Source: Escherichia phage ES12
DNA: 64,000 bases
Strand: one strand, 5' to 3'
Sequence record: MN508614.1
A program made the position numbers and the translations under genes. Below the pieces are notes generated by a model. That model searched no databases. It was not told the origin of the DNA and worked only from the letters and a program-made list of their open reading frames with translations. Shown piece by piece: positions 2,415-63,360 of the stretch. Position 1 is the first letter of the stretch; every line of letters begins with the position of its first letter.

Positions 2415-2575
2415 TAACTATACCACTCAATTAGTTGACTTTGCTATAATATCATCAGACGTTTGATTTGTAAACTGGTCTGTGGTATTTTCTTCAAAAA
2501 TTTTTTCTACGAATTCCTTGAACGACTTACGTTCCTGAGCTACATTATGCTCGATTACTTTTTCAAGATTATGAC

Positions 2576-4872: not shown

Positions 4873-4977
4873 TTTAATCTCCGTTTCAGTTCATTTATTT
4901 GATAGGTCTATAGTATCATGTTTAAAGCAGAAGTAAACACTTTTTTGCACTCTTTTTCAAGAGCTCTAATAAAGTAC

Positions 4978-5205
4978 TTACTTAATGTTCAGATTACGAA
5001 CTTCGATTTCGTCTTCATGGGCAAAATCAAACTGTTTGAATTCTGTGTCACCTTTAAATTTAAAAATCATTGTGAAGAAAGTCAGAACACCAGGTTTTTC
5101 TTCACGAACTCCACAGATATCATATTCAATACCATCTACAACCAGTTTGTTAGCAGTCAGAGCATTTTTAGCTTTAACGATTTCGTTTTCGATTTTAAAT
5201 TTCAT
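4978..5205 (-). CDS. Hypothetical protein, 75 aa (motA.1 position)
   Basis: ATG at 5205 with GGAG SD, immediately downstream of an early-promoter cassette. Confidence 0.6.
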   Translation of the reverse strand: MKFKIENEIVKAKNALTANKLVVDGIEYDICGVREEKPGVLTFFTMIFKFKGDTEFKQFDFAHEDEIEVRNLNIK

Positions 5206-5249
5206 TTTTTGTATCTCCGGGTTGTTTGTTTCAGTTCATTTATTTGATA

Positions 5250-5300
5250 GTTGTATAGTACCACAGTATGCTTTGGTTGTAAACCGTTTTGTGAAAAAAT
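5250..5300 (-). promoter_or_regulatory. Early sigma70 promoter cassette (GTTTAC -35, extended -10) with AT-rich UP element
   Basis: Minus-strand reading: AAAAATTTTTTCACAAAACGGTTTAC-(18 nt)-TGgTACTAT; near-identical copy at 61800-61850. Confidence 0.5.
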
Positions 5301-5307
5301 TTTTGAA

Positions 5308-5338
5308 ATAAAAAAGGGAGAGCCTCGGCTCTCCCTAA
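5308..5338 (-). terminator. Rho-independent terminator after the gene 52 unit
   Basis: GGGAGAGCC-tcgg-GGCTCTCCC hairpin followed by a U-run on the minus-strand transcript. Confidence 0.55.
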
Positions 5339-8384: not shown

Positions 8385-8440
8385 GATAGGGTAATAGTAC
8401 CACGGAAGAACAGTCTTGTAAACAACTTTTTTAAAAATAT
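8385..8440 (-). promoter_or_regulatory. Early promoter cassette
   Basis: Minus-strand GTTTAC-(18)-TGgTACTAT followed by a GGAGGAACAGAAAATG leader. Confidence 0.45.
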
Positions 8441-8608: not shown

Positions 8609-8872
8609 TCATAGTTCAATCTCAACGATTTCCAAGTGTTTTTGTTTTATTGCCTTTTTAACACAATCATGGACTAAATATGACCATGAATCATTATATT
8701 CTCCATTAACTAATCGTTGGAGATCTTCACGTGATGATAAGTAAGGTTGATCTGATTCCCATTTTGATAAAAATACTGCAGTAAAAATATCTCCTTCATC
8801 TGTAGTTGAAGTCGTAAATGCAATAAATTCACCGGTAATTTTATGTTTAACGTAAAAGAACTTAAATTTCAT
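8609..8872 (-). CDS. Hypothetical protein, 87 aa
   Basis: ATG at 8872 immediately after the GGAGGAACAGAAA leader of an early-promoter cassette. Confidence 0.6.
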   Translation of the reverse strand: MKFKFFYVKHKITGEFIAFTTSTTDEGDIFTAVFLSKWESDQPYLSSREDLQRLVNGEYNDSWSYLVHDCVKKAIKQKHLEIVEIEL

Positions 8873-8894
8873 TTTCTGTTCCTCCGTAGTTGAT

Positions 8895-8945
8895 AGTTGT
8901 ATAGTACCACGGTCCTTGTGATATGTAAACTGTTTTATGAAAATT
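8895..8945 (-). promoter_or_regulatory. Early promoter cassette
   Basis: Minus-strand GTTTAC-(18)-TGgTACTAT, AT-rich upstream, GGAGG leader. Confidence 0.45.
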
Positions 8946-9505: not shown

Positions 9506-9567
9506 TTAAACTTTCCTTTTATGTCTGAATCACTGGTATTCATATAATAAATCATAATTTCTCTTAA

Positions 9568-9592
9568 AACAAAAGGGCCGAAGCCCTTATTT
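9568..9592 (-). terminator. C(UUCG)G hairpin terminator
   Basis: Minus-strand RNA reads AAGGGC-UUCG-GCCCUU followed by UUGUUUU. Confidence 0.5.
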
Positions 9593-9786
9593 TATTTGAA
9601 TTGTGCAATTCTTTTCTCTAGACATTCAGCATAAGATTTCATTGAGATGAACTGTGAAAGTAGCAGTTCTTGCTCAACTGCACTAACTGTTAGAAACTTT
9701 GCGCTTTCTAAAAATTTGCTCAGTGCATTAATTTTGAGCATTAATTGATCGTATTCTTCTTTTACTCGTGCTTGATAACCTAACAT
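9592..9786 (-). CDS. Hypothetical protein, 64 aa (denB.1 position)
   Basis: Helical small protein flanked by two UUCG hairpins. Confidence 0.55.
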   Translation of the reverse strand: MLGYQARVKEEYDQLMLKINALSKFLESAKFLTVSAVEQELLLSQFISMKSYAECLEKRIAQFK

Positions 9787-9814
9787 AATTTTCCTTAGTT
9801 AAGGGCCGAAGCCC

Positions 9815-10753
9815 TTATTTAAATTGTTCAGTAACGTCTTCAACTACTTCGTATTGGCAGGTACGCATTTTAGCATCGTTGTAATCAATCGGAATTGATA
9901 CTACATCGCGAGGATGAACCTTAACTTTTACAACTCGGCTGGTTGAACTGCCAAAGTGACGAATATAAGATTTAGAACACACATGCAGACCACGAGAACA
10001 AGTTTGTGTATCATCGTCATTCACACGAGTACGTGGCATTTTAACTACTTTACCCGGACTGTTATCAAAGGTGTTTGAGTGACAGTCAAAGTAATTGCTG
10101 CGAACTACTTTCCAAGCATAGAAGTAGCCATCTTCTGTAATTTCAATATCATTTGCTACCAAGAAATCAAAGAGTCGAGATACCGCTTTTTGGCTTGGGT
10201 TTTCCAGCAGATTTTCCAAGAACGGAAAATAAAATTCAAAGTTTTCACCTTTTTCCATCGAGTCGAGAATACGATCAACCAAACCAGATCGCAATTCAAT
10301 ATTTTGATAGAACAAGCTTCCACCTTCAATTCGAACATCACCGGAAATATATTTTTCAACAGCGCGACGAACATTAATTTTTTGTGCCGCTTCTTCCAAC
10401 TTATCCGCTACAAGCAGATTAAGAATTTCCTGGAAGTTTGAATGAGTATTAGGAGTTGCGTTATAAGTTACACCATCAACAGTAATTGAAATGAATTTTT
10501 TAGATGCATTCCAAATAATGTCAGATTTAGCAACTGGAGCAATAACTGCATCGCTATTAACTTTAACTGTAATATCACCACTAATAGTAACTTTAGGGCG
10601 TTTAGCTTCTTCAGCATTTTTCAAAACACGACGGATTGTGTCAACCGATACATCCTTCCAATAAGCTAATTCCTGCTGAGTGTAATTACCACTTGAATAC
10701 AGTTTAACAATTTCAGCTTGTTCGTTTTTGGTCAGGCATTTAATATTGTACAT
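9815..10753 (-). CDS. rIIB: rIIB protein
   Basis: 312 aa, length and position match T4 rIIB. Confidence 0.97.
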   Translation of the reverse strand: MYNIKCLTKNEQAEIVKLYSSGNYTQQELAYWKDVSVDTIRRVLKNAEEAKRPKVTISGDITVKVNSDAVIAPVAKSDIIWNASKKFISITVDGVTYNATPNTHSNFQEILNLLVADKLEEAAQKINVRRAVEKYISGDVRIEGGSLFYQNIELRSGLVDRILDSMEKGENFEFYFPFLENLLENPSQKAVSRLFDFLVANDIEITEDGYFYAWKVVRSNYFDCHSNTFDNSPGKVVKMPRTRVNDDDTQTCSRGLHVCSKSYIRHFGSSTSRVVKVKVHPRDVVSIPIDYNDAKMRTCQYEVVEDVTEQFK

Positions 10754-13179: not shown

Positions 13180-13212
13180 TAATTATACCACATCCTTGTG
13201 GTAAAGTAAACT
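13180..13212 (-). promoter_or_regulatory. Early sigma70 promoter for the rIIA.1-rIIA-rIIB unit
   Basis: Minus-strand GTTTAC-(18 nt)-TGgTATAAT with a perfect TATAAT -10; a near-identical copy sits at 57390-57426. Confidence 0.55.
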
Positions 13213-15031
13213 ACTGGCTCATCCATTCTTTACGAAGGTCAGCATTATCTCCCATGAGCATTTCAAAAAGCTCTTTCCAATTCTCAGGAAGTTTAACAAC
13301 ATCATATACTGGGTTTTGAATCATCTCACGATATTCAGATTTTTCCAAAGAGCCAAGTCCCTTAATATAACGGATGCTATGTTTAGGTAGAGCATCTTTA
13401 GCACTCTCATATTCAGCGACTGTATAAAACCATTCTTGTTTTTTACCGACCTGAGCGATGATTACAGGAGTTTTGACGAAGCGAATTCTTCCTTGTTCAA
13501 ACAGTTCTGGCCAATTACTAAAAAATCCGAGCAGAGAAGGATAAATGCTTCCTAGACCATCATGGTCAGCATCAGTCATAATAGCGATATTATGATAATT
13601 CAAGTTTTCAGCTTTTTCACCGAGAACTAATCCAGTGATTGCGCAAATATCAAACAGTTCTTTGTTTTTAAGCATGTCAGCATATGACATACCCCAACTG
13701 TTGAGAACTTTACCACGTAATGGATAACCACCGTGAAGTTCTTTATCACGAACATCAATAAGATATCCGATAGCCGAATCACCCTCAGTCAAGAAAAGAG
13801 TAGTATCAGCATCTTTACCACAAAGATTCGCTTTAATATGTTTATGAACCTTAGCTTTAGAAGCCTTTTTAGCTGCTTTAGTTTCTGCTGCTTTTTCTGC
13901 CGCTAATTTACGAGCCAAAGCAGCTTCAATAATCGGCATTAGAATTGCTTCATTATTTAGAATAGCACGTGAAATCTTTTTAGCATCAAGTTGAATATGA
14001 CTACGGATTTCGCCAAATGGAGAAGTCAAACGCTCTTTAGTTTGAGAATCAAATCGCATGTTTTTCATATCACGGACAAACATAACGATAGTCAAACATT
14101 CTTTAACGCGTGCTTTAGTCACATCAATTTTGAACTTACGTTTGATTTGTGGAATAAGGTCTTCACAAATATCATCCATAACACAGTCAATGTGATGGCC
14201 ACCATTCTTAGTGTGAATGTTATTCACATAAGTTAATTGACGAAAACCATCCGGTGAACGACCAACCGCAATAGAGCAATTTTCTTGTTCTTGAACAATA
14301 GCATGCTCATCATATTGGCGTGCATATTTCTTAAAATTGCCCTGAACCTTTTTACCATTAAAGGTAAATTGAATATCAGGATAAACTACTGCAAGTGTCT
14401 GGAGACGATCTAGTGTAATGTCAAGATAAACTTGGGACAGCTCATTAGTTTCAAATGACATAAAATCAGGAATGAAAGTAACACGAGTTCCTTTCCATTT
14501 TCCAGGAATAGTTTCCCATGATTTATTTTCCATGCCATTTGAACAACGAACTACAATATTATTTTGACCATCACCAGTTTCACCAACAAACATCACAGAA
14601 AAAATGTTTGTCAAACTAGAACCAACACCATTCATACCGCCAGTGACACGTTCTTTATCATCGCCAAAGTTACCACCTGCTTTTGGAATAGTCCATGCAG
14701 CAACAGGACCAGGAATTTCTTCACCGGTAGGTGTTTTAACCATCGCCTGCGGAATACCACGACCGTTATCTTCAACTGTTACTTGATTGTTTTTAATAGT
14801 AACATTAATTTTATTTGCGAATTTAAACTTAGTACGAATACCTTCATCTACTGAGTTATCGATAATTTCATCAATAAGCTTAACAAGACCAGGTACATAC
14901 TGAACACTTTCCCATTTACCAAACAGAAAGCGCTCATGCATTTCATTAGCAGAAGAGCCAATATACATGCCGCTACGCTTTTTGATATGTTCAATATCGC
15001 TCAGAATTTTAATTTCATTCTTAATCATCAC
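13211..15031 (-). CDS. 39: DNA topoisomerase II large subunit, unsplit gene 39 (covers T4 gp39 plus gp60)
   Basis: 606 aa continuous ORF: N-terminal GHKL ATPase and C-terminal Toprim region ending ...LMGDNADLRKEWMSQ; no intervening ORF or bypass gap. Confidence 0.95.
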   Translation of the reverse strand: MMIKNEIKILSDIEHIKKRSGMYIGSSANEMHERFLFGKWESVQYVPGLVKLIDEIIDNSVDEGIRTKFKFANKINVTIKNNQVTVEDNGRGIPQAMVKTPTGEEIPGPVAAWTIPKAGGNFGDDKERVTGGMNGVGSSLTNIFSVMFVGETGDGQNNIVVRCSNGMENKSWETIPGKWKGTRVTFIPDFMSFETNELSQVYLDITLDRLQTLAVVYPDIQFTFNGKKVQGNFKKYARQYDEHAIVQEQENCSIAVGRSPDGFRQLTYVNNIHTKNGGHHIDCVMDDICEDLIPQIKRKFKIDVTKARVKECLTIVMFVRDMKNMRFDSQTKERLTSPFGEIRSHIQLDAKKISRAILNNEAILMPIIEAALARKLAAEKAAETKAAKKASKAKVHKHIKANLCGKDADTTLFLTEGDSAIGYLIDVRDKELHGGYPLRGKVLNSWGMSYADMLKNKELFDICAITGLVLGEKAENLNYHNIAIMTDADHDGLGSIYPSLLGFFSNWPELFEQGRIRFVKTPVIIAQVGKKQEWFYTVAEYESAKDALPKHSIRYIKGLGSLEKSEYREMIQNPVYDVVKLPENWKELFEMLMGDNADLRKEWMSQ

Positions 15032-15044: not shown

Positions 15045-15100
15045 GTTTCGGGAATATTATACTCCGGTAATCATAAAGCTAAAGGCCCGAAGGCCTTTTA
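15045..15100 (-). promoter_or_regulatory. MotA-box middle promoter with adjacent UUCG hairpin, upstream of gene 39
   Basis: Minus-strand AAGGCC-UUCG-GGCCUU hairpin then AGCTTTA-(12)-TATAAT. Confidence 0.4.
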
Positions 15101-16336: not shown

Positions 16337-16563
16337 TAATAAATTTCCTTCCAGTAAGTTGTGCCGTCTTCAGTAATTTCACGAAATACACCGTAAATTG
16401 GTTGTTTATCACCGACTTTCTCATACACATAAACTGAAGTCAAGTGAGTAAACTTGACAGTGTGTTCCTTTTGAACTACTACCAAATTTGGATCAAATAA
16501 TACATCTTCAAATTCATCATTAGTGCAGTTCTGAACAATTTTGTGTTTCATTACATTCTCCAA
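16336..16563 (-). CDS. Hypothetical protein, 75 aa
   Basis: ATG at 16563 directly after a promoter-leader cassette. Confidence 0.55.
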
Positions 16564-16569: not shown

Positions 16570-16640
16570 GTATCAGTAGTTGATATTGATATAGTACCAT
16601 AATCAACTACTGATGTATATAGTTTTATGAAAAAATTTTA
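16570..16640 (-). promoter_or_regulatory. Degenerate early-promoter/leader cassette upstream of the 75-aa ORF
   Basis: Contains the conserved TGgTACTAT element and AT-rich upstream region but no clear GTTTAC -35. Confidence 0.3.
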
Positions 16641-17174: not shown

Positions 17175-17212
17175 AGGACCATTATACTCTGGTCCCAAGA
17201 GTTTGTAAACTA
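17175..17212 (-). promoter_or_regulatory. Early sigma70 promoter upstream of motB
   Basis: Minus-strand GTTTAC-(18)-TATAAT. Confidence 0.5.
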
Positions 17213-18284: not shown

Positions 18285-18320
18285 TGTTATAATACCATAA
18301 CTAACCGAGGAAGTAAACAA
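18285..18320 (-). promoter_or_regulatory. Early promoter
   Basis: Minus-strand GTTTAC-(18)-TATTAT. Confidence 0.45.
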
Positions 18321-22149: not shown

Positions 22150-22185
22150 TATACTATAACATTTTTACCTTAACTTGTAAACAAC
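22150..22185 (-). promoter_or_regulatory. Early promoter upstream of srd
   Basis: Minus-strand GTTTAC-(18)-TATAGT with AT-rich UP region. Confidence 0.4.
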
Positions 22186-22841: not shown

Positions 22842-23461
22842 TCAACTACCTCAATATCATACACTTTAAATGTTCCAAATGAATCGTGTAATTTTTCTTT
22901 TGAAATAGAAGTTATTCTATACTTTCCAATTGGAATCATCCATTCTTGTTCACGCACAATCATCATTAAGTTATCAGTACGCTCTGAATCTAATCCATCA
23001 GTATCTTCATATGTATACTTAAATTCAGTATTAGGAGAAGAAAGTATAATATCGCTGATATGGTCAGAATAATTAAAAGCTTTATCAGTTTTTAAGCGAA
23101 ATATTATTTCAGTGAAATACTCAACATAAGAAAAACCACATGCTGTGTGCAAACTAGTAGTAAATGAATCTACTCTGTTCGTTGAAAACACTTCTCCGAC
23201 TTGTAAATCTTTAATGAGTTCTTTTGTCGATTTTGATATACCACGATATAGCTGATAAGGCGATTTAGTTAAATGCTTTTTAACGATTTTATTCAACTGC
23301 CGATGAAGAGCTTCATTCTTTTTGGCTTCTATACACTGCCAAAGAACTGACTGTTCAAAGTCAGTAAATTTTTCACAGACCTTTTTATACATATCATATT
23401 GAAAATCAACGCTTTCAGCTTTTATAGATAACTGTTCAACATCTGCAGGATTAATAATCAT
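22838..23461 (-). CDS. modB: ADP-ribosyltransferase ModB
   Basis: 207 aa paralogue with R (LYRG), STS-like and EQEWMIP motifs; overlaps the next gene by 4 nt. Confidence 0.65.
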   Translation of the reverse strand: MIINPADVEQLSIKAESVDFQYDMYKKVCEKFTDFEQSVLWQCIEAKKNEALHRQLNKIVKKHLTKSPYQLYRGISKSTKELIKDLQVGEVFSTNRVDSFTTSLHTACGFSYVEYFTEIIFRLKTDKAFNYSDHISDIILSSPNTEFKYTYEDTDGLDSERTDNLMMIVREQEWMIPIGKYRITSISKEKLHDSFGTFKVYDIEVVE

Positions 23462-23484
23462 GATAGCCTCCGTATACTTCAGAA

Positions 23485-23520
23485 GCTATCATATCATCGT
23501 TAGAAAGGAAAGTAAACAAC
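23485..23520 (-). promoter_or_regulatory. Early promoter upstream of the modB-modA unit
   Basis: Minus-strand GTTTAC-(18)-TATGAT. Confidence 0.4.
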
Positions 23521-25569: not shown

Positions 25570-25637
25570 AGTGTTCTCCTCTATAAGATATTTTTATTAT
25601 ACCACACTCATTTTGACATGTAAACCATAAAATGAAA

Positions 25638-25660
25638 AAAGGAATCCCGAAGGATTCCTT
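25638..25660 (-). terminator. Rho-independent terminator downstream of soc
   Basis: Minus-strand RNA AGGAAUCC-UUCG-GGAUUCCU followed by UUUUUUCAUUUU. Confidence 0.5.
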
Positions 25661-25941: not shown

Positions 25942-26151
25942 TTAAATTACATGATTATTTATAATAAATTCTCGCGGAACGTTAAAATACCCGATTTTAG
26001 TTAATATAACAACATCGCCGTTAATAATTACCGGAGAATAATCTTCTGGAGCATTAAATTTCCAATGGGCTCTAATATTATATCCATCAGAACCAAATGC
26101 TCGCGTAGCTGGTCTCCCAGCTTTTTGCCATGCGTAGAAATCAAATTTCAT
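25942..26151 (-). CDS. Hypothetical protein, 69 aa
   Basis: Minus-strand ORF between gene 56 and soc. Confidence 0.5.
   Translation of the reverse strand: MKFDFYAWQKAGRPATRAFGSDGYNIRAHWKFNAPEDYSPVIINGDVVILTKIGYFNVPREFIINNHVI
25956..25963 (-). promoter_or_regulatory. Late promoter (TATAAATA) for soc
   Basis: Exact TATAAATA on the minus strand about 30 nt upstream of the soc ATG, followed by AAAGGAG SD. Confidence 0.5.
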
Positions 26152-26342
26152 TTTGAATGCTCTATAATTAATTTTAAAGCTTCTTCACTGACAAAAATTT
26201 CGTCAGGACCTTCTATAACTTCAACCATACGAAGTTGATTAGTTAAGAGCTCACATACGAGCTCCTTGTTATAATCTTTAAATAGCTGGTCAATACGTTT
26301 CTTGTGGGCTTTCTTAAGCTGGCGTTTATTTAAACGAGCCAT
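26148..26342 (-). CDS. Hypothetical basic protein, 64 aa
   Basis: Minus-strand ORF overlapping the gene 56 stop. Confidence 0.5.
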   Translation of the reverse strand: MARLNKRQLKKAHKKRIDQLFKDYNKELVCELLTNQLRMVEVIEGPDEIFVSEEALKLIIEHSK

Positions 26343-26860
26343 TAATAACCTCGGTCTTGACGAGCGAAGTTTTCAGCATTTTTCAGATAATAAAGTTTAA
26401 AGATTTCTTCAGCCGTAAGACCGAGGCCTTGGAACATGTTCAGAACGAAATGAAGAATATCAATCATTTCGAATTTAATTTCCAACTGGTCTTGTGGAGA
26501 CAAATCAGTAATCAGAGTTTCACGTCGTTCACCATGTTGAGCTTTCCAAGGCTTCCATACAGCAGATGCATCTTTTTCACCATTGCTCATACCACCAAGA
26601 GAAGTCAATAGTTCGCGGAATTCATCATCAATATAATCTTTCTGATTACGCAGCCAATCAACAACTTCACCCGCAGTAGCCAAATCATCAGGATGACGGT
26701 TATATTCAGGTTTATCTTTAGCTAAACGAACCTGCAGAGATTTCTGCATATCAAGCATAACTTGCAACGGGTCTTTTTCATCACCGAGAATATCCCAGTA
26801 TTCATTTTGAGCTTTATCAGCGCCTTCAATCAGTTGTGAACATTCATTAAAGTATGCCAT
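26342..26860 (-). CDS. 56: dCTP pyrophosphatase (dCTPase/dUTPase) gp56
   Basis: 172 aa from MAYFNECSQLIEGADKAQNEY..., MazG-like; the track ORF extends 31 codons upstream. Confidence 0.85.
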   Translation of the reverse strand: MAYFNECSQLIEGADKAQNEYWDILGDEKDPLQVMLDMQKSLQVRLAKDKPEYNRHPDDLATAGEVVDWLRNQKDYIDDEFRELLTSLGGMSNGEKDASAVWKPWKAQHGERRETLITDLSPQDQLEIKFEMIDILHFVLNMFQGLGLTAEEIFKLYYLKNAENFARQDRGY

Positions 26861-26931
26861 TATTTTTCCTTTCAATTCATGGGTTAGTAGATTAATTATA
26901 CAATAAATATATAAAGCAATAAGGAGGACAT

Positions 26932-28988: not shown

Positions 28989-29048
28989 GATAATCTCCTC
29001 GGTAGTTTATGTTTATATAGTATCTCAATTTCCAACAAAAGTAAATAG

Positions 29049-29490: not shown

Positions 29491-29548
29491 AACAATCTCC
29501 TCATTTAACCAACAAGACTACTATACCATAGTCTTGTCAGCTTGTAAA

Positions 29549-30976
29549 CTAAAATTTTAATTCATTTGCCAAAGCATCTAACTGAGCTCGAGTCGATTCG
29601 TTTCTTTGATAGCGATTCTGCTCAGCTTGTATCTGTTGTGAACCTGCTACCTCACTCACTTCAGTTGGAGTAGAATCTTGTTCAATTTCTACCCATTTCT
29701 GATTTCCTTTTTGAACACCCATCAAAAACTTATTCCATTTGTTCTTATCGCCATATCGTGATTTGATTTGCTTAATGAGTTGCTGTTCAGCAGCTGCTAA
29801 CTCCTCGGTTTCAATGACCGCAAGCATAAAATCGGCTGTTGCTGGAAGACCGGCAGATTCTGCGATATCACTCATGTTAACATCAGAAGAATCCCAAGCT
29901 TGTTTACCAACCTGTGCTGCGGTCCAAAGAACAGTTTCGGTTTCAACAGCCAGAGCACGCAATTCCTCTGCGATAGCTTTAACAGTTGTGTAACTATTTT
30001 CTGAATAAACTCTAATGCGGCAAGATTTACAAATACCCAGATAGTCAACAATAATGATTGTTGGAACAAAATTCTTCTTGAGCTTTAATTCATTTAAAAG
30101 TGATCGAAATGTATTAGCGTCTGCTCCACCAGTAGGATACTGTTTAACGATTAAACGACCAAGAGTAGATTTCTCACGCCATTTTTCCATTTTTCCTTTA
30201 TACTCAGCGTAAGAAATATGCCCATCATCAATGTCATCAAGAGAAACATCAAGCATATTAGCATCAATACGCTTAGCACAGACTTCTTCTGCCATTTCCA
30301 TGGAAATGTAAAGAACATTATGTCCGAGCTGCAAATAATCTGCTGCCAATGAACACAGACCTAATGACTTACCAACGTTAACGCCAGCCATTAAAACGTT
30401 CAGTGTTCCTGTCTCAGCTCCGCCTTTAGTAATTTTGTTTAGAATTCTGAGTTTAAATGGAACTTTACGAGCTTTATTCATATAAGATAGCCAGCGTGCT
30501 TCGTAGTCATCCATCCAATCATGACCAACGTAGCTATCAAATGAAATTGATAATGCTTGACGCATGATATCAGGAATAGCACCTACATCTGGCATTTTCT
30601 TATTTCGTTTTTCCGGAGGAAGTTCAGCATTAGTTTGGATTTCAATTATTTTAGACGTAGCATTAAACATCGCCCTTTGCTGAACATATTTTTCTGTTTC
30701 TTTTACTAACCAACTGTGGTCTTCCGGAGAATCAGCCAGTTTTGAAATAAGTGTTTTTACACCAGAATATTCTGTTTCAGTAAATGAACTATTTTCTAAT
30801 GCAACATTTAACGCATTAATAGATGGAACGCTATGATACTCATTAACATGAGATTTAATTAATTTGAATGTATTTTTAGCTGGACCACTTTCAAAATATT
30901 CTGAATCCATATATGGCCAAACTTTTGAAAAATAAGCTTGATCAAATATAAGATGAGAAAGAATAATTTCTACCAC
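29549..30976 (-). CDS. 41: Replicative helicase gp41 (DnaB-like)
   Basis: 475 aa; length and position match T4 gp41. Confidence 0.97.
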   Translation of the reverse strand: MVEIILSHLIFDQAYFSKVWPYMDSEYFESGPAKNTFKLIKSHVNEYHSVPSINALNVALENSSFTETEYSGVKTLISKLADSPEDHSWLVKETEKYVQQRAMFNATSKIIEIQTNAELPPEKRNKKMPDVGAIPDIMRQALSISFDSYVGHDWMDDYEARWLSYMNKARKVPFKLRILNKITKGGAETGTLNVLMAGVNVGKSLGLCSLAADYLQLGHNVLYISMEMAEEVCAKRIDANMLDVSLDDIDDGHISYAEYKGKMEKWREKSTLGRLIVKQYPTGGADANTFRSLLNELKLKKNFVPTIIIVDYLGICKSCRIRVYSENSYTTVKAIAEELRALAVETETVLWTAAQVGKQAWDSSDVNMSDIAESAGLPATADFMLAVIETEELAAAEQQLIKQIKSRYGDKNKWNKFLMGVQKGNQKWVEIEQDSTPTEVSEVAGSQQIQAEQNRYQRNESTRAQLDALANELKF

Positions 30977-31342: not shown

Positions 31343-32498
31343 TTAACTGCTCGAGGTCAGTTTCTAAATCAGCTGCTGATTTACTTTTACTTTCTGGAGA
31401 TTTAAATTTTTCAACCTTTGAGTTAATCAATTCATCAACTTCAGCTTCAACAATTTCATTACTATCAATAGCACCTAACTGATAAGCACGTTTAATAGCA
31501 TCTCGGAATGGTTGATGCTTAAATAAAGGACCCCAGAATGTAGTGCAGTTGGTATCTTTTGCACGCCAAGATTTTTCTTCGCGAATCATCTCGCCGGTTT
31601 CTTCATCAAGAAATTCACGAGCATACCAACCATTTTTAGGTTTTACTACAAATCCTAATTCTAGAGCCATATCTAACAATCCAGAATAAGGATCAATACC
31701 ACCGTCAAATTTAACATCAATAAAGAATTTACTTTTTTCTTTAACGGTACGAGATTTTTCTACATTTAGAACAAATTGATACCCCTGAAGATCAGAACCA
31801 TCTTTAATCTGACGCTTACCGATAATGAATACAGTATCAGCCGAATACATTACGCCTGTACCACCTGTCATCACGGTTTTACTAAACATTTCAATTGTTT
31901 CAATTGTATGGTTAACCGCAACACATGGAATATTTTTAATGCTAAAGTAAGGAGTAACAATACGGAATAATGACTTCAGTGATTTAGCACGAGTCATATC
32001 TGCCACAGATTTTTCATTCAAGGCATCTTCCGTTTCTTTCTTAGAAGCCATATTACCGATTGAGTCGATGAATACAATAACTTTTTCACCACGCTCAATA
32101 GCTTCAAGCTGATTCACCATATCAATTTTCAGCTGTTCAACTGACTGGATTGGCGTATGAATTACTCGTTCCGGGTCAACTCCCATGGATCGCAAATAAG
32201 CTGGAGTAATACCAAATTCACTATCATAGAATAGACAAACCGCGTCAGGATATTTGTTCAAATATGCCGCAACCATAGTCAAAGACATATTTGATTTAAA
32301 GTGTTTAGAAGGCCCTGCGAAAATAGTTAAACCAGACTGCATACCGCCATCAATCGCACCAGAAATAGCAATATTCAGCATTGGAATTTTTGTACGGATT
32401 ACATCCTTTTCATTAAAGAATTTAGATGTAGTCAGTTCAGCAGTCATTTTAGAAGTGGAAGCTTTAATCAAACGGGATTTTAAATCTGCAATAGACAT
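31317..32498 (-). CDS. uvsX: UvsX recombinase (RecA-like)
   Basis: 393 aa, Walker A GPSKHFKS, acidic C-terminal tail; near-identical to remembered T4 UvsX. Confidence 0.97.
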   Translation of the reverse strand: MSIADLKSRLIKASTSKMTAELTTSKFFNEKDVIRTKIPMLNIAISGAIDGGMQSGLTIFAGPSKHFKSNMSLTMVAAYLNKYPDAVCLFYDSEFGITPAYLRSMGVDPERVIHTPIQSVEQLKIDMVNQLEAIERGEKVIVFIDSIGNMASKKETEDALNEKSVADMTRAKSLKSLFRIVTPYFSIKNIPCVAVNHTIETIEMFSKTVMTGGTGVMYSADTVFIIGKRQIKDGSDLQGYQFVLNVEKSRTVKEKSKFFIDVKFDGGIDPYSGLLDMALELGFVVKPKNGWYAREFLDEETGEMIREEKSWRAKDTNCTTFWGPLFKHQPFRDAIKRAYQLGAIDSNEIVEAEVDELINSKVEKFKSPESKSKSAADLETDLEQLSDMEEFNE

Positions 32499-32575
32499 TC
32501 ATTTTTTCCATAGGCATCATTATATTTTCCTCACTGGTTAAAGATAGAGTAATTATAACACAATAAATTTAGGCA

Positions 32576-33424
32576 TTAATCAACTGCTATTGGATGAATA
32601 GCATTAAACTTATGAAATGCTTCTGATTTTTCTTTACGTGAAACGCACATGCGAAGAACCTTTAATGGCTCGTCTTCTTCACCCAACGATTTTCGTTTTT
32701 CAATATTCGACGTTTTCCAACGAGCTTGCTCTGGAAACTCTCTATTGATTTGCTCAAGCGCTCTATTATGTTTAGAATTACTACGAATTGAACTACACCC
32801 ACCAGGAGCTTGCGCTTTTCCAGATACAACCAGATATTTGAACAAGGCCAAATGCGGATAACCTTGATTAATTAAATTGAGAAATGCATACATATCTTCG
32901 CACAAATCAATTTTTCCATACCCAATTTGTTCTGTCGTAAGTTTTCCGAGGTCATACCATGTATTCGTGAATCCATATGAATTTTCACGATAATTACCCC
33001 AAGATGAAGTAATTTTAAAAATTGGTAGACGAGCATGGCCATGATAATACCCGCAATCCATGGCATCCTCAACATATTGAATCAATTCATAGAACTGTTC
33101 ACGAGTCAATTGATTGACTTTATCTACACAACGACGGTCATCTCTTTTTCGCATTGAACTCATACGAATAGTAGTATCATCGTCAATCATCCAGATTCGT
33201 TGACCTGCATACATATCAGTAATTGCTTTACGAGTACCGGCAATTCCGTTTACATCATCAGGAATAGTTATAATTTTAGCTCTAGACCCATAGGCATCAT
33301 AATAAGCTTTTTCTTCATGTTCACGCACTATAATATGCGGTTCATAATCAGTCGGAAACATATCAAGGGCAGAAACTGCCCCTACACGCTGATAACTTGG
33401 AATTACGAATTGAATCATTTCCAC
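32576..33424 (-). CDS. DxD-motif glycosyltransferase at the beta-gt locus (candidate beta-glucosyl-HMC-alpha-glucosyltransferase)
   Basis: 282 aa with IWMIDDDTT; occupies the uvsX-42 interval where T4 has the 351-aa beta-gt. Confidence 0.6.
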   Translation of the reverse strand: MEMIQFVIPSYQRVGAVSALDMFPTDYEPHIIVREHEEKAYYDAYGSRAKIITIPDDVNGIAGTRKAITDMYAGQRIWMIDDDTTIRMSSMRKRDDRRCVDKVNQLTREQFYELIQYVEDAMDCGYYHGHARLPIFKITSSWGNYRENSYGFTNTWYDLGKLTTEQIGYGKIDLCEDMYAFLNLINQGYPHLALFKYLVVSGKAQAPGGCSSIRSNSKHNRALEQINREFPEQARWKTSNIEKRKSLGEEDEPLKVLRMCVSRKEKSEAFHKFNAIHPIAVD

Positions 33425-34155
33425 TCACCATTATAATCTTTTTTCACAATATGAGTTTCGCCAGTATTCCACCAATGATCAACCAAGTAAAAATGACGAG
33501 AATATACATGAAGACTTCCAACATTCCATATAATAGAACCTGCTTTATATTGACGAGTTGAATCGCCTGCATTCAAATCAGATACTAATTTATCTAATAC
33601 GTATTTTTGCCATGCATAATCATTACGGAATCCGAAGACCACATCATTTGAGCGCATGTTAACAACCGCATTGATTTTCTTGTCACGAATCAGGTATTGT
33701 ACTGTATTTGTACACATGAAATCTGACATGCCATCTTTATTGTAGTCAAACTGCATAGATGGACGAGTATAAATCATGATACCACGTCGAGAATCAGGAT
33801 TTTGACCAAGTTCAGCTAAACACATGTCATATTGAGCATAGTTATCTTCTGACCAGATAGCCCAACCATAATTCGAGTTAATTTCACCTTTAGAAGATGC
33901 TACTTGTTGCCAAATCTTCGGTGTTTCACCCGGAATATCTTTAACGAACAAGCTTTTAGATTTATACCATTCAAGTTCACGCTGAATGTATTCATCATTA
34001 AGAGCGCCAAAAATAAACGGTTCATCTGCTACAAATGATGCGCCAATAATTTCAATAGTTTTAACACCAGTTTTATCAACTACGAAATCTTTTTCTTTTA
34101 ATGCAAGCCCCAAATGAAGACGGATTTCTTCAACTGTCATAGAGTCACTAATCAT
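33415..34155 (-). CDS. 42: dCMP hydroxymethylase gp42
   Basis: 246 aa, thymidylate-synthase-like fold; length matches T4 gp42. Confidence 0.95.
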   Translation of the reverse strand: MISDSMTVEEIRLHLGLALKEKDFVVDKTGVKTIEIIGASFVADEPFIFGALNDEYIQRELEWYKSKSLFVKDIPGETPKIWQQVASSKGEINSNYGWAIWSEDNYAQYDMCLAELGQNPDSRRGIMIYTRPSMQFDYNKDGMSDFMCTNTVQYLIRDKKINAVVNMRSNDVVFGFRNDYAWQKYVLDKLVSDLNAGDSTRQYKAGSIIWNVGSLHVYSRHFYLVDHWWNTGETHIVKKDYNGEWK

Positions 34156-34948: not shown

Positions 34949-34958
34949 AATAATTTCC

Positions 34959-35195
34959 TCAAATGCAAGTAGTAATTACTCCAGTAGTGCTTATGCAGGT
35001 ATTACCCATTTGCACACCTAAAGATCCATTTGTATTCACATGAAGATTATCATCAATTTTAACTGATATTTTACCATTAGTGTGAATAACGGTGCTAGAT
35101 TCAATCACAGGTTGAGTATCATTTTCAACACTAACAAATGGAACTGCTGCTAATGCAACTAAACAAACTGCTAAGCATCCCATAACAATTTTCAT
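34959..35195 (-). CDS. Secreted small protein, 78 aa
   Basis: Start at MKIVMGCLAVCLVALAAVPF (signal peptide) after an early-promoter leader; the track ORF reads through the promoter. Confidence 0.55.
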   Translation of the reverse strand: MKIVMGCLAVCLVALAAVPFVSVENDTQPVIESSTVIHTNGKISVKIDDNLHVNTNGSLGVQMGNTCISTTGVITTCI

Positions 35196-35227
35196 TTCAT
35201 TCTCCAAATCCGTATCAGTAGTTGATA

Positions 35228-35290
35228 GTTGTATAGTACCATAGAAGAACAGGGATGTAAACCGTTTTGTGAAAAAATTTTTAATGAATT
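35228..35290 (-). promoter_or_regulatory. Early promoter cassette
   Basis: Minus-strand GTTTAC-(18)-TGgTACTAT, AT-rich UP, conserved leader. Confidence 0.5.
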
Positions 35291-35348: not shown

Positions 35349-35368
35349 AAGGGACCCGGAGGTCCCTA
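35349..35368 (-). terminator. Rho-independent terminator downstream of gene 43
   Basis: Minus-strand RNA GGGACC-UCCG-GGUCCC followed by UUUUUCAU. Confidence 0.55.
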
Positions 35369-40272: not shown

Positions 40273-40299
40273 AATTTCCTCATTCAAGTTTTAGTGTAA

Positions 40300-40322
40300 A
40301 TTATAAAGGGCCGAAGCCCTTT
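40300..40322 (-). other. C(UUCG)G intercistronic hairpin between genes 45 and 44
   Basis: Minus-strand RNA AAGGGC-UUCG-GCCCUU. Confidence 0.4.
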
Positions 40323-40323
40323 A

Positions 40324-41010
40324 TTAAAAATCGTGAGTAGAATCAGCTTCAAGAGCTACTACATAATTCGCATGTTCACCTTCAAATTTAGCAGCACCTT
40401 GTTTACCTTTTGCCCAGAGCAGAAGTTTATAATTTCCTGGTTGCATTTTCATATTTGCCATATTGATAATGAAATTAAATGTATTTTCACCATCATAATC
40501 ACCAAGAGTCAAAGAATATTTAACACGGGTCAGAGCAGAATCTTCTACTTTATTAAAACCGTTAATTACGATTTTACCTTCTTTTACCGTGATAGCAATT
40601 GTATCAATTTGCAGACCACGAGATACGCGCAACAGTTGTTGAAGGTCTTCAGCTTTAATTTCGGTAACAACAGATGCTACCGGGAATGGAATTGGTTTAT
40701 TAGGAGCAACTACTGTACTCGGATCGGCTGCTGGCCAAAAAATTGTTGAGCGGGCATCAGCAATTTTAATATTTCCATCTTCTGACTGGGAAATTTCTGC
40801 ATCATCATTAACTAGAGACAGAATACCGAGAAAACCGTTCAAATCGTAAATTGCTACATCAAAATCAATAACGTCAGAAATATTTGCTTCCGCATAAGTT
40901 GTACCATTAACCGCGCGAGTCATAATAAATTGACCGGATTTAAGCATAATGCCAGAGTTAATAGTAGCGAAATTTTTCAAAATATTCAGTGTATCTTTAG
41001 ACAGTTTCAT
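40324..41010 (-). CDS. 45: Sliding clamp gp45
   Basis: 228 aa; matches T4 gp45 length and N-terminus MKLSKDTLNILK. Confidence 0.97.
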   Translation of the reverse strand: MKLSKDTLNILKNFATINSGIMLKSGQFIMTRAVNGTTYAEANISDVIDFDVAIYDLNGFLGILSLVNDDAEISQSEDGNIKIADARSTIFWPAADPSTVVAPNKPIPFPVASVVTEIKAEDLQQLLRVSRGLQIDTIAITVKEGKIVINGFNKVEDSALTRVKYSLTLGDYDGENTFNFIINMANMKMQPGNYKLLLWAKGKQGAAKFEGEHANYVVALEADSTHDF

Positions 41011-43838: not shown

Positions 43839-44854
43839 TGTGTTGCCTCTACATATAGCTGATTTGCATATTGAATAAGTGCTTCACGATCAGAATCAGT
43901 GATGTCTGGAATTGCATTAATATACTCTTCCATTAATGTCTGAAGCGATTGAACTTCAACTTCTTCACTGTCATCTGACTCGACAGAGTTATCAATCTTT
44001 GACACAACTCGTAACGAATGCACAACTTTCTCTAGTTCAGATTCGAACTTCGTCAGATTTTTGTCTACTTCAGTTACTATAACACGTACTGATAGATTTG
44101 TAAAATCTTTATAGTCAATTTTTCCTTTAAATGGATAATGAATTCTACGATGCCAGGTAGTATTGTTTGGAATAAATTCCATTCGTTCTGTTTCTGTATC
44201 AAACATCCAGAACCCACGAGGGTCATTCTCGTCACCTGCAGTTAGTGTCCATGGTGTCCCAATATATCTGACGTTTGCAGCCTCAGAGATAGTATGGAAG
44301 TGACCAGACCACACTTCTTTATAAGTCTTAAGGAAATCAGGTTCAAGACCGTGAGATTTCATTCCTTTATAAAAATAAAATCCGTTCAGTTCCCAGTGAC
44401 CAACGCAAAAAGAAGCAGATGAAGTTTTGATGTGTTCAAGAATTTCACCAGTATTTTCTTCACACATCCAAGGAATTAAATCAATTAAACATCCGTCAAA
44501 ATCTACTGTAGTAGGCTTATCATATACTTTAACATTAGGATATTTAGCCAAAAGCTCAGTAGAGGCATTTGGAGTTAAAGTATTTTTAAAGTGCATATCA
44601 TGGTTTCCTACAACAGTATGTAGGGTAATACCAGCATCATCAAGCATTTGAACTATTTCACGAGCGAACTCCATAGTTTTATGCGTGATTGCTTTTCGCA
44701 CATCAAAAATATCGCCGTATTGAATCCAGGTAGTAATTCCATTTTTCTTAGAATATTCTATTGCTTGTTTAATTCCATCCAACTGAATGGATTGAACCCA
44801 CTCATCATCGGCTTTAACGCCTAAATGCCAATCACCTAAATTTAAAATTTTCAT
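43835..44854 (-). CDS. 47: Recombination nuclease subunit gp47 (Mre11/SbcD-like)
   Basis: 339 aa, calcineurin-like phosphoesterase motifs (GDWHLG, GNHD). Confidence 0.95.
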   Translation of the reverse strand: MKILNLGDWHLGVKADDEWVQSIQLDGIKQAIEYSKKNGITTWIQYGDIFDVRKAITHKTMEFAREIVQMLDDAGITLHTVVGNHDMHFKNTLTPNASTELLAKYPNVKVYDKPTTVDFDGCLIDLIPWMCEENTGEILEHIKTSSASFCVGHWELNGFYFYKGMKSHGLEPDFLKTYKEVWSGHFHTISEAANVRYIGTPWTLTAGDENDPRGFWMFDTETERMEFIPNNTTWHRRIHYPFKGKIDYKDFTNLSVRVIVTEVDKNLTKFESELEKVVHSLRVVSKIDNSVESDDSEEVEVQSLQTLMEEYINAIPDITDSDREALIQYANQLYVEATQ

Positions 44855-44984: not shown

Positions 44985-45028
44985 ATATCATTATATCAAA
45001 CTCCGTATAAAGCTAAAGGGCCGAAGCC
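44985..45028 (-). promoter_or_regulatory. UUCG hairpin plus MotA-box middle promoter upstream of gene 47
   Basis: Minus-strand RNA AAGGGC-UUCG-GCCCUU then AGCTTTA-(12)-TATAAT. Confidence 0.4.
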
Positions 45029-45030
45029 CT

Positions 45031-46233
45031 TTATTTTGTAATAATGTCAAACTGTTCTTTAAAGCAGAAGCTTGAATCTTGATGCTGATACAAAAATTCA
45101 TAAGCTTTTTCGCGTTCACGGTCATAAAGAGTTCGGTCAGATGACAGTTCTTTAATACGTTCAAATGTTGATTCCATGTCATTTTCATCAAACCAAATGA
45201 TACCGCTATCATGTGAGGTCAAAGGAGTATTATCAACACGGAATTTTAAATTTTCGCCAGTAGATTTCCAAAATACCGGAATTGTTCCACATGCACCAAG
45301 CTCGAGATGAGTATATTCTAAAGAACGTTGTAGATATTTTTTGTCCAACTTACTCAGCTGATAACCAAATCCGGATTTACTCATGCGTTCAAGCATTTCG
45401 CTATTTACATAACGGTCAAGAATTTGCGTTGGCAAATTAGGAGCAATTTTAATTTGGTCTACTTGATGAAGACGATAATACTCGTATGGAATTCCTTTTT
45501 CTTTAATAGGAATGAACGCTGGAGAACGTTCCAGACCTTCCATAATAGTACTTAGTCCTGCAGGTTTAAGATGTTTTTCGTGAAAATCAAACATCTGATA
45601 AAAACCTTTCCATGTAGTCGTACGACCAATCCAACGGTTGACATTCATGTTAATTTCAGAAACATCTTTCCAGTAGGTTGACCGAACCTTCGCAATATCC
45701 ATAGGAGGCTGAAAGTTATATACTGTCGGTGCTTCTTCAATATCATCAAACAGAGAAACAGTTTCTGGATACCATTCTTTCATCAGAACTTTATTAAAAT
45801 CACCATTATCAGAATGGCTAAAAATAACATCAGCTCGACGAACAGTTTCTTCTAATCCCAAATTTCGACGCAAAGAAAGAGAAGAATGGTCATGCTGATA
45901 AACTACAACACGAACCGAAGGTTTAATGTTATCAATAATTTTTTTATAGTTATTAATAGTGTCTTCTTCAACCGAAGTAGCAGGAACTGAATTGATAATT
46001 AGAATATCACAATCATTTACCAGCTTAAGTGTTTTATCATATTCTTTTGCCAATAAAACCGGAATTGAAAATGATTTATAATCATGCGCGCAATTACGAG
46101 TAAATGATTTATCTTTAGCATAAACCAAAGTCACTTCATGACCATTTTTAATAAACCAATCACGTTGCTCGAGTGAGAATTTTGTTACACCACAACCTTC
46201 AAGACCTCGAGCCATAAAAATACATACTTTCAT
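45031..46233 (-). CDS. a-gt: DNA alpha-glucosyltransferase
   Basis: 400 aa, ...CIFMARGLEGCGVTKFSLEQRDWFIKNGHEVTLVYAKDKSF... matches remembered T4 AGT. Confidence 0.95.
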   Translation of the reverse strand: MKVCIFMARGLEGCGVTKFSLEQRDWFIKNGHEVTLVYAKDKSFTRNCAHDYKSFSIPVLLAKEYDKTLKLVNDCDILIINSVPATSVEEDTINNYKKIIDNIKPSVRVVVYQHDHSSLSLRRNLGLEETVRRADVIFSHSDNGDFNKVLMKEWYPETVSLFDDIEEAPTVYNFQPPMDIAKVRSTYWKDVSEINMNVNRWIGRTTTWKGFYQMFDFHEKHLKPAGLSTIMEGLERSPAFIPIKEKGIPYEYYRLHQVDQIKIAPNLPTQILDRYVNSEMLERMSKSGFGYQLSKLDKKYLQRSLEYTHLELGACGTIPVFWKSTGENLKFRVDNTPLTSHDSGIIWFDENDMESTFERIKELSSDRTLYDREREKAYEFLYQHQDSSFCFKEQFDIITK

Positions 46234-46244
46234 TTAATATCCTC

Positions 46245-46296
46245 TTTGTTTTGGTTTATTTTACCAAAAATTTATAAAGCAATATAGGAGCCGAAG
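46245..46296 (-). promoter_or_regulatory. Terminator hairpin plus MotA-box middle promoter for a-gt
   Basis: Minus-strand RNA UAGGAGC-UUCG-GCUCCUA, then TTGCTTTA-(12)-TAAAAT and SD AAGAGGA. Confidence 0.45.
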
Positions 46297-48616: not shown

Positions 48617-48651
48617 ACATTATCCTCAATTACGTTAAAATTTTATTATCC

Positions 48652-48670
48652 AAAAAGGGCCGAAGCCCTT
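48652..48670 (-). terminator. C(UUCG)G hairpin terminator
   Basis: Minus-strand RNA AAGGGC-UUCG-GCCCUU followed by UUUUGG. Confidence 0.45.
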
Positions 48671-48869
48671 AGCTAAACTTTTTGGCACCCTTCCAGCCTT
48701 CATACATCATTGCGGCTGATATTAATATTGCTCCTGAGCAACTTGAATATTTGTGATTCCAAAACCAGTTTAGAAAAACTTCGTCATCAATACCTTGTGC
48801 TATCATATTTTCAAAGAACTGACGACGAGCTTCGGCAATTCGCTGCGATAATTTAGATTCAGGATTCAT
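48669..48869 (-). CDS. Hypothetical protein, 66 aa
   Basis: Minus-strand ORF. Confidence 0.5.
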   Translation of the reverse strand: MNPESKLSQRIAEARRQFFENMIAQGIDDEVFLNWFWNHKYSSCSGAILISAAMMYEGWKGAKKFS

Positions 48870-49504: not shown

Positions 49505-49540
49505 TTAATAATACCACGGTTTGAACTTGTTGTAAACAAC
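49505..49540 (-). promoter_or_regulatory. Early promoter
   Basis: Minus-strand GTTTAC-(18)-TGgTATTAT. Confidence 0.45.
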
Positions 49541-57389: not shown

Positions 57390-57426
57390 AAGAACATTAT
57401 ACCACATCCTTGTGGTAAAGTAAACT
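57390..57426 (-). promoter_or_regulatory. Early sigma70 promoter between paralogues C and B
   Basis: Minus-strand GTTTAC-(18)-TGgTATAAT, near-identical to the copy at 13180-13212. Confidence 0.5.
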
Positions 57427-60359: not shown

Positions 60360-60397
60360 AGTTGTATAGTACCACAGAGGAATGGTCTTGTAAACCA
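60360..60397 (-). promoter_or_regulatory. Early promoter cassette
   Basis: Minus-strand GTTTAC-(18)-TGgTACTAT with GGAGGAACAAAAATG leader. Confidence 0.5.
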
Positions 60398-61770: not shown

Positions 61771-61799
61771 TTTATTCTCCAAATCCGTATCAGTTGATA

Positions 61800-61850
61800 G
61801 TTGTATAGTACCACAGTATGCTTTGGTTGTAAACCGTTTTGTGAAAAAAA
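61800..61850 (-). promoter_or_regulatory. Early promoter cassette
   Basis: Minus-strand AAAAATTTTTTTCACAAAACGGTTTAC-(18)-TGgTACTAT; about 60 nt near-identical to 5250-5300. Confidence 0.5.
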
Positions 61851-61866
61851 TTTTTGAAATAAAAAA

Positions 61867-61885: not shown

Positions 61886-61886
61886 A

Positions 61887-63358: not shown

Positions 63359-63360
63359 AA

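Follow-up and report, generated by a model that had tools for sequence, protein, structure and literature searches.

Characterisation of the early promoters of bacteriophage T4 dates back to the 1980s, and their consensus is reportedly to be found in Liebig and Ruger (1989), Wilkens and Ruger (1996) and Miller et al. (2003). These promoters are described as "uber" UP/-35/TGn/-10 promoters, recognised by the unmodified sigma-70 RNA polymerase in the first minute of infection, and MotA is one of the early products (PMC2988021). The other system of relevance is the PeSL cassette. A study by Arbiol et al. in 2010 demonstrated both promoter and terminator activity of PeSL cassettes, and described RB49 and phi1 mini-circles that form via crossovers between flanking copies, in the segment from the -10 to the ribosome-binding site (PMC2839356). 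In 2014, Comeau et al. extended PeSL to a further pair, T4 and PST, with the ndd region among the examples and the consensus TTTACW-N17-TAYWAT (PMC4122927).

The window examined here, that is the whole stretch of 64,000 nucleotides, is Tequatrovirus DNA in which the early and middle genes of T4 lie on the minus strand. Between positions 4000 and 9000 it has 100% identity to Escherichia phage ES26 (MN508618) and 98% to many other Tequatrovirus genomes. The G+C content is 32-36%, and the block of minus-strand genes is consistent with a GC skew that is negative from ~4 kb onward. By collinear alignment, the equivalent in T4 (NC_000866) is ~160.2-168.9 kb, followed by 0-57 kb. This is the prereplicative region, which contains asiA/motA/52/ndd/rIIB/rIIA, then 39, motB, dda, modA/B, 61 and 41, and continues through uvsX, 43, 45, 46/47, 55 and nrdD to nrdC.11. 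Three comparator genomes, T4 (NC_000866), slur02 and SG1, were used for collinear mapping.

The element of interest is located at 5221-5338. Read on the minus strand, it comprises the stop codon of the motA.1 homologue, a terminator hairpin, an A/T-rich stretch, GTTTAC, a spacer, TGGTACTAT and a leader. The position of the hairpin directly 5' of the promoter core makes this a terminator/promoter composite of the PeSL type. A relaxed scan together with a weight matrix gives a family of ~19 copies in the window, the element measuring 60-90 nt (Table 1; copies are cited below by their upper coordinate). The first-pass annotation had described an early-promoter cassette reiterated at more than ten sites, and a copy is present at 13 of the 13 places that it named. 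Its list was incomplete, as it missed the copies at 2446-2475, 4910-4938, 16591-16620, 25596-25625 and 29520-29549 and the weak one at 29017-29046.

Table 1. Predicted early promoters and associated features of the window.
Feature	Coordinates	Strand	Description
Early promoter copy	2446..2475	-	upstream of asiA (ATG 2414)
Early promoter copy	4910..4938	-	upstream of motA (ATG 4872); came with the cassette
Inserted cassette	4916..5240	-	leader + 75-aa ORF (4978-5205, phrog_10955) + second promoter; 345-nt unit
Early promoter core	5255..5284	-	orthologue of the T4 motA promoter, here upstream of the inserted 75-aa ORF (ATG 5205); -35 GTTTAC (5279-5284), 15-nt spacer, TGGTACTAT (5255-5263), -10 TACTAT
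Intrinsic-terminator hairpin + T6	5315..5336	-	GGGAGAGCC-GAGG-GGCTCTCCC, 9 bp, GC-rich; -17.6 kcal/mol, z = -4.2
Early promoter copy	8394..8423	-	upstream of 37-aa ndd.4-like ORF; leader CTATCAACTACGGAGGAACAG
Early promoter copy	8901..8930	-	orthologue of the T4 denB/ndd.6 intergenic promoter
Early promoter copy	13182..13211	-	upstream of rIIA.1; 32 nt identical to 57396-57427
Degenerate copy	16591..16620	-	upstream of cef; -35 ATATAC; UP element, TGGTACTAT and leader conserved
Early promoter copy	17181..17210	-	upstream of motB; GTTTAC, TATAAT, no TG
Early promoter copy	18289..18318	-	upstream of motB.2; T4 counterpart at ~8.2 kb
Early promoter copy	22153..22182	-	upstream of srd
Early promoter copy	23488..23517	-	upstream of modB
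Early promoter copy	25596..25625	-	upstream of mrh.2; UUCG-loop terminator hairpin 25639-25660 just 5'
Weak candidate copy	29017..29046	-	upstream of sp; ATTTAC, no TG
Early promoter copy	29520..29549	-	upstream of dmd
Early promoter copy	35233..35262	-	orthologue of the T4 gene 43/imm.1 intergenic promoter; terminator hairpin 35350-35367
Early promoter copy	49508..49537	-	upstream of 55.6-like 60-aa ORF
Early promoter copy	57396..57425	-	upstream of nrdC.4
Early promoter copy	60366..60395	-	upstream of nrdC.8; leader GGAGGAAC
Early promoter copy	61805..61834	-	upstream of nrdC.10; terminator hairpin just 5', within 61852-61890

The window was searched with the pattern GTTTAC-N15-TGnTAnnAT (GTTTAC-N15-TGNTANNAT), allowing at most one mismatch, and dinucleotide shuffles served as the null. 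There are 15 matches in the window, 15 of 15 on the minus strand, whereas the shuffles average 0.64 matches and never exceed 3. A generic TTGACA/TATAAT sigma-70 scan of the window shows no enrichment over shuffles (77 vs 77.4; 83 vs 87), and the signal is therefore carried by the T4-specific promoter pattern alone. The weight matrix is overfitted to 14 sites; the held-out 57425 copy scored low though its core is identical to that of the 13211 copy. For this reason, the matrix was used solely to pick up degenerate copies (16620, 29046, 44105) and not for statistics. Matches at 50942-50970 (inside nrdG) and 44076-44105 are followed by no gene start and may be inactive, and were excluded from the family. 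The pattern-only matches at 54141 and 49092, which have neither the TG nor a following gene start, were also excluded.

The consensus of 16 copies reads aaAa.attTTTcA.aaA.t.GTTTACAa...(spacer)...TGGTAttATa.aacTaTcaa and contains ~46 bits in total. An exact GTTTAC is found in 17 of the 19 copies, the remaining two having ATATAC (16620) and ATTTAC (29046). The spacing from TTTACA to the -10 hexamer is 17 bp in 18 of the 19 copies and 16 bp in the 4938 copy. The 18-nt spacer reported earlier holds when counted from GTTTAC, where the 4910-4938 copy has 17 nt between the end of this hexamer and the -10 and the other copies have 18, and corresponds to the canonical 17 in the standard register (TTTACA vs TTGACA). 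The TG of the extended -10 is also present in 17 of 19, missing at 17210 and 29046. The 24 nt located 5' of the -35 are 75% A+T, compared with a window background of 65%; the A/T-rich UP region (about -40 to -60) is present, with a modest effect in certain copies located within the 3' end of the upstream gene (13211, 57425).

Downstream of the -10 by 25-49 nt, each of the 19 copies has a ribosome-binding site and an ATG, and GGAG or GAGG is the ribosome-binding site in most leaders. The elements are predicted to mark the starts of early transcription units, and this would fix the true start codon of many small early genes which six-frame translation reads through. One such read-through, the false N-terminal extension ...GTIQLSTTDTDLENEM cited in the first-pass annotation, was located at 35193-35243 on the minus strand. 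The statement that the leader is often GGAGGAAC was too generous, as this exact string follows 3 copies only (8423, 8930 and 60395). A scan of the whole window against Rfam returned zero family matches, and there is thus no sign of the conserved leader being a known RNA element. Clear stem-loops followed by a T-run are near 4 of the 19 copies (5284, 61834, 25625 and 35262, the last of these 90 nt upstream), with energies of -12.7 to -17.6 kcal/mol. The hairpin check of the ~19 copies found no convincing stem-loop beside the rest.

The elements can be placed by sequence in the T4 early promoter class, as the family shows all of its sequence-level defining features. Collinear mapping is in agreement. 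Wherever T4, slur02 or SG1 has a counterpart, the copy is upstream of an annotated early gene. The positional orthologues are the T4 sites 5' of asiA, motA, ndd.4, ndd.6, rIIA.1, cef, motB, motB.2, srd, modB, mrh.2, sp, dmd, imm.1, 55.6, nrdC.4, nrdC.8 and nrdC.10, some being at gene ends and others intergenic. Another Tequatrovirus record has a 'promoter' and a 'terminator' annotated at the homologous motA site. The GenBank and RefSeq records of T4 contain no promoter features, so the match to named T4 early promoters rests on position. No genome-wide map of T4 transcription starts was found in the literature searched; primer-extension data exist for individual T4 early promoters (PMC6024815).

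The early-promoter reading put forward at the outset is supported by these results: the copies have all the sequence features of T4 early promoters, the same orientation, and a location upstream of orthologues of T4 early genes. The elements are very probably sigma-70-dependent early promoters of a T4-like phage which secondarily act as homology patches for recombination. Sequence and orthology point to the initiation of early transcription as their primary function.

Middle promoters, dependent on MotA/AsiA, also occur in the prereplicative region where the copies sit, and the 4910-4938 copy contains TGCTTTA. However, a TGCTT MotA box at 12 +/- 1 bp from the -10, the spacing rule for this class (PMC2988021), is present in 0 of the 19 copies. 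The TGCTT of the 4938 copy is just 7 nt from the -10, and TGCTT is absent from the other 18 of 19. The MotA-box hypothesis was rejected, as (a/t)(a/t)(a/t)TGCTTtA is not at the required spacing in any of the 19 copies. The copies contain instead a -35-type GTTTAC at sigma-70 spacing, and both asiA and motA, each behind a copy, must be made before middle transcription. The probability that these are middle promoters is negligible.

As early promoters, the elements would be contacted by unmodified host RNA polymerase at the UP element (through the alpha-CTD), GTTTAC(A/T), the 17-bp spacing and the extended -10 TGnTA(T/C)(A/T)AT together, as known for T4 (PMC2988021). This four-element recognition would cause host promoters to be outcompeted in the first minute of infection, again from knowledge of T4 (PMC2988021). 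Transcripts from each promoter are predicted to begin with a short leader (~20-45 nt) that contains a strong ribosome-binding site (GGAG/GAGG) and the start codon (ATG) of an early gene. The intrinsic terminator 5' of several promoters probably insulates the unit.

Most dispersed direct repeats of the window belong to the promoter family (families D1, D2, D5, D6, D8, D9, D10 and D14). Exact runs common to the copies are 20-56 nt, and up to ~85 nt overall, with the UP element at one end and about position +5 of the transcript at the other; with such runs, the copies may act as homology patches. Two pairs had been singled out as nearly identical, and both are so. The 5284 and 61834 copies have a 56-nt exact run, or ~85 nt with one 1-nt indel, which takes in the 3' arm of the terminator, the UP region, the -35, the spacer, the -10 and the first leader nucleotides, and the 13211 and 57425 copies are exact over 32-33 nt. 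Apart from the single 56-nt pair, exact repeats are of 34 nt or less, so that recombination through the copies should be rare.

The common runs would serve the recombination machinery of the phage as short patches of homology. Comparison of the genomes indicates that crossover or conversion within the patches has led to small leader-ORF-promoter cassettes being inserted, replaced or relocated, and to one copy being homogenised against another. We infer general homologous recombination of the UvsX type, with a mini-circle as the likely intermediate. If two distant direct copies underwent a reciprocal crossover, essential genes would be lost, and the only viable outcomes would therefore be conversion, exchange with a co-infecting genome, and excision or integration between neighbouring copies.

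Relative to T4, slur02 and SG1, motif matches and collinear chains identify 27 distinct indel or replacement events. Five of these have a junction inside the promoter/leader block (4916/5240, 8632/8882, 16546-16555, 34949/35181 and 61783-61793). The cassette at 4916-5240 is located between the resident motA promoter and motA, has the 23-nt direct repeat CTATCAAATAAATGAACTGAAAC at its flanks, and is missing in 3 of 3 comparators (T4, slur02, SG1). In ~70% of 497 Tequatrovirus records, homology breaks at window position ~5241, just 3' of the promoter. At 8632-8882, an 87-aa ORF with no equivalent in T4 is the next gene after the 8901-8930 promoter, to which it is joined within the ribosome-binding site, with the junction in the leader at ~8883. 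The four genomes have four different leaders and genes at this locus, behind an identical ACAACTATCAAC.

The junction at 16546-16555 is at the cef start. The insertion at 34949-35181 contains a 78-aa ORF, none in T4, which is now the next gene behind the gene 43/imm.1 promoter (35233-35262), and its junction at 35181 follows the ATG. At 61783-61793, SG1 has a similarly built cassette of two ORFs, which brings a downstream promoter of its own and in which CTATCAAAACAAA is repeated. The window cassette at the motA locus and the SG1 cassette at the nrdC.10 locus both abut the resident promoter right after ACAACTATCAA. The SG1 cassette ORF was considered as a relative of the 75-aa ORF and this was rejected, the two being unrelated.

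The 75-aa ORF (phrog_10955) is present in 167 phage records. Its position in Salmonella phage S16 (Gelderlandvirus) is between the homologues of nrdC.11 and nrdC.10; in Tequatrovirus, the nrdC.11/nrdC.10 junction holds a promoter near-identical to the motA promoter. In a Klebsiella Jiaodavirus the ORF is near tRNA genes. Both in S16 and in this Jiaodavirus the ORF is bracketed by two GTTTAC...TAnnAT promoters, and the two leaders around it in S16 are near-identical repeats. The same ORF is thus bracketed by promoter copies at three loci in three genera. This spread over three loci is a fresh instance of a known process and not a new kind.

A second trace of exchange is found in the nrdC.10 promoter. 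In T4, slur02 and SG1 its spacer is AAGCATAAAGCTTTA. In the window the 15-nt spacer is AACCAAAGCATACTG, which is the motA-promoter spacer of all four genomes, and the locus-specific hairpin and leader around it are unchanged. Such a pattern is the signature of an apparent ectopic gene conversion over a short tract, the two copies being 56.5 kb apart. Among 510 matching records, ES26 alone has the converted allele, which means that the conversion either took place very recently or reflects an assembly error.

An assembly or consensus artefact at the repeat would account for the near-identity of 5284 and 61834 without biological conversion. The confinement of the allele to ES26 among the 510 records fits such an error, as does the fact that the record is unannotated and that the 15-nt patch has sequence common to both loci on either side. 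The whole repeat is only ~85 nt, however, which is below ordinary read length, so reads that reach into unique sequence should be able to resolve it. Each locus also has its proper flanks, with the hairpin and leader that are specific to it. At the 35262 locus, too, there are two spacer alleles among the orthologues of the compared genomes, one of which resembles the spacer of the 8423 copy, and this variation indicates that such exchanges do occur. An artefact is unlikely.

It had also been proposed that the repeats define gene cassettes and can mediate their exchange. Many precede conserved regulators (asiA, motA, motB, srd, modB) and not accessory cassettes alone; the repeats are probably transcription-unit starts first. 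With the three comparators, synteny breakpoints fall inside the repeat in the five cases given above, yet indel junctions are found at 6 of 19 promoter-bearing gene starts and at 22 of 100 promoter-less ones (odds ratio 1.6, one-sided p = 0.26, Fisher), and there is no significant junction excess at promoter-bearing starts relative to T4, slur02 and SG1. At least six single-gene insertions are at promoter-less junctions where the stop and start codons overlap (15361, 19512, 25978, 38163, 47801 and 49936). Insertions of homing endonucleases or introns in T4 account for seven of the differences from that phage (mobA with the gene 60 split, segF, segA, mobB, mobC, I-TevII and mobD).

These figures fit a reading in which the elements are promoters only, their similarity being due to functional constraint and common descent, and their coincidence with indels due to a shared position at gene boundaries, with no special role in recombination. 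Most pairs of copies are alike in the constrained blocks only, and their spacers differ. Constraint provides no explanation, however, for a 15-nt spacer that is identical at loci 56.5 kb apart and different in three orthologues, for cassette ends that are direct repeats of the promoter/leader, or for the same ORF at three different promoter-flanked loci. In addition, experiments on RB49 and phi1 demonstrated mini-circles that arise from crossover in the segment between the -10 and the ribosome-binding site (PMC2839356). A promoter-only role is rather unlikely on balance. The suggestion of the first-pass annotation that the elements are a recombination substrate is upheld by the five junctions in the repeat, the apparent spacer conversion, the 75-aa ORF between promoter copies at three loci and the published PeSL model, but not by any significant excess of junctions.

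A different possibility is that these are dedicated mobile cassettes, with a specific site (the CTATCAA junction or the GC-rich stem-loop) and a phage-encoded enzyme, similar to integron attC. The window cassette at the motA locus and the SG1 cassette at the nrdC.10 locus are independent and join the resident promoter at the same point, right after ACAACTATCAA. A helper protein that binds the stem-loop was raised as a possibility by Arbiol et al. (PMC2839356). On the other hand, CTATCAA is the end of the family-conserved block, at ~+5 of the transcript, so a homologous crossover anywhere in the block would leave its junction there and no site-specific enzyme is needed. Other junctions are not at this point, the one at 8883 being within the ribosome-binding site and the one at 35181 following the ATG; the stem-loop is near 4 of 19 copies only, and CTATCAA is absent from the S16 copies. 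To our knowledge, there is no recombinase for these sites. This explanation is extremely improbable, and general recombination through the shared runs is preferred.

A broader form of the idea is that the block from promoter to +5 (..TGGTACTATACAACTATCAA), together with the leader, could go beyond passive homology and be a preferred and perhaps enzyme-assisted integration site for self-contained leader-ORF-promoter cassettes, mobile from locus to locus and from genus to genus within Tevenvirinae. This seems very unlikely. If true, early promoters would form the basis of a gene-capture system resembling integrons, with the 75-aa phrog_10955 gene as an example of its cargo (in ES26-like phages at the motA promoter, in S16 at nrdC.11/nrdC.10 and in a Jiaodavirus near tRNAs).

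The closest known system is the T4 early promoter itself, with which the elements share GTTTAC(A/T), the 17-bp spacing, TGnTA(T/C)(A/T)AT, the A/T-rich UP region, the orientation and the gene context. There is no difference of kind. The window differs in having one extra copy (4910-4938), derived from the cassette, other genes 3' of three copies, and the converted nrdC.10 spacer. Similar to T7 A1, lambda PL and T5 P207 (PMC2988021), the elements belong among promoters that make multiple RNA polymerase contacts and would be of very high strength without phage factors, whereas the -35 of the window copies is GTTTAC and not TTGACA. The UP-region block TTTTCACAAA and the discriminator/initial transcribed block ACAACTATCAA are T-even-specific features of the window family.

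With PeSL (PMC2839356, PMC4122927), the window shares, where a hairpin is present, the composite in which a terminator stem-loop and an A/T-rich region precede an early promoter, with a ribosome-binding site and start codon behind it. It also shares the proximity to small ORFs, the putative crossovers between the -10 and the ribosome-binding site, and ORFs flanked by two copies, which fit the model of mini-circle excision and integration. The window copies fit TTTACW-N17-TAYWAT, and the ndd region is among the published examples (PMC4122927). In contrast to PeSL, a clear stem-loop is beside 4 of the ~19 window copies only, so that strict PeSL is limited to those four; many window copies precede conserved regulatory genes and not ORFans, and an indel excess at the copies does not emerge with three comparators.

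The elements probably account for some of the mosaicism in gene content among T4-like phages, which are now used in phage therapy. Both the early promoters and their role as recombination patches are already known, PeSL having been published in 2010 and 2014, and the apparent conversion at nrdC.10 and the 75-aa ORF at three loci are local additions to this known process.

The 75-aa ORF (phrog_10955) has a different location in each of three genera. In Tequatrovirus phages like ES26 (the phage of the window) it sits at the motA promoter, in Salmonella phage S16 it lies at the nrdC.11/nrdC.10 junction, and in a Klebsiella Jiaodavirus it is found close to tRNAs. At all three loci the ORF has a copy of the early promoter on both sides. 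The promoter carried by the cassette at 4910-4938 (minus strand), now upstream of motA, contains a MotA-box-like TGCTTTA. This is located just 7 nt from the -10, as opposed to the 12 ± 1 required of a MotA box.

The nrdC.10 promoter (61805-61834) has the same 15-nt spacer as the motA promoter (5255-5284), a feature of ES26 only (one of 510 records). The shared spacer reflects either an apparent ectopic gene conversion across 56.5 kb or an assembly error.

Besides the early promoters, terminator hairpins of the form AAGGGCTTCGGCCCTT make up a second dispersed repeat family, with a UUCG tetraloop on the minus strand. The two lowest copies, spaced 228 nt apart, enclose one small ORF of ~62 aa, and a 207-nt insertion present in slur02 and SG1 at 9516-9520 adjoins the lower of them. 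These hairpins could be a second type of recombination patch.

The early-promoter pattern is matched well at two places within coding sequence, neither having a gene start within 230 nt. The match inside nrdG is preceded by a hairpin and is kept in T4, slur02 and SG1; it may be a promoter internal to the gene or have arisen by chance. At the modB promoter (23459-23493, minus strand), a 14-bp hairpin, TATGATAGCTTC...GGAGGCTATCATG, is predicted to pair the -10 region and 5′ leader with the modB ribosome-binding site and ATG, and may act as a translational control structure.

Positions of the features, in window coordinates unless another locus (L010, L011) is named
Feature	Position	Strand	Remark
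75-aa ORF, phrog_10955	4978-5205	minus	no assigned function
75-aa ORF matches outside the window	L010 1477-1725; L011 1495-1731		
Terminator hairpins AAGGGCTTCGGCCCTT	9573-9598, 9801-9826, 15065-15098, 40289-40331, 44999-45041, 48638-48680		UUCG tetraloop on minus strand
Early-promoter pattern match	50942-50970	minus	inside nrdG
Early-promoter pattern match	44076-44105	minus	inside coding sequence, gene 46/47 region
Sites of T4 mobile-endonuclease differences	13547-13610, 25964-26378, 32487-33432, 46222-46248, 51025-51047, 52323, 62909-63863		

The insertions of mobile endonucleases that T4 carries are absent from ES26: mobA (together with the gene 60/39 split), segF, segA, mobB, mobC, mobD and the nrdD intron with I-TevII. 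At 26881-26920 nothing corresponds to the dam methyltransferase region of T4, which spans 919 nt in that phage and 1418 nt in SG1, and ES26 therefore appears to be without dam. In place of T4 segA and beta-gt, ES26 contains other sequence at 32487-33432. As the collinear gene of slur02 is annotated as a beta-glucosyl-HMC-alpha-glucosyltransferase, this suggests glucosylation of the T2/T6 type in ES26.
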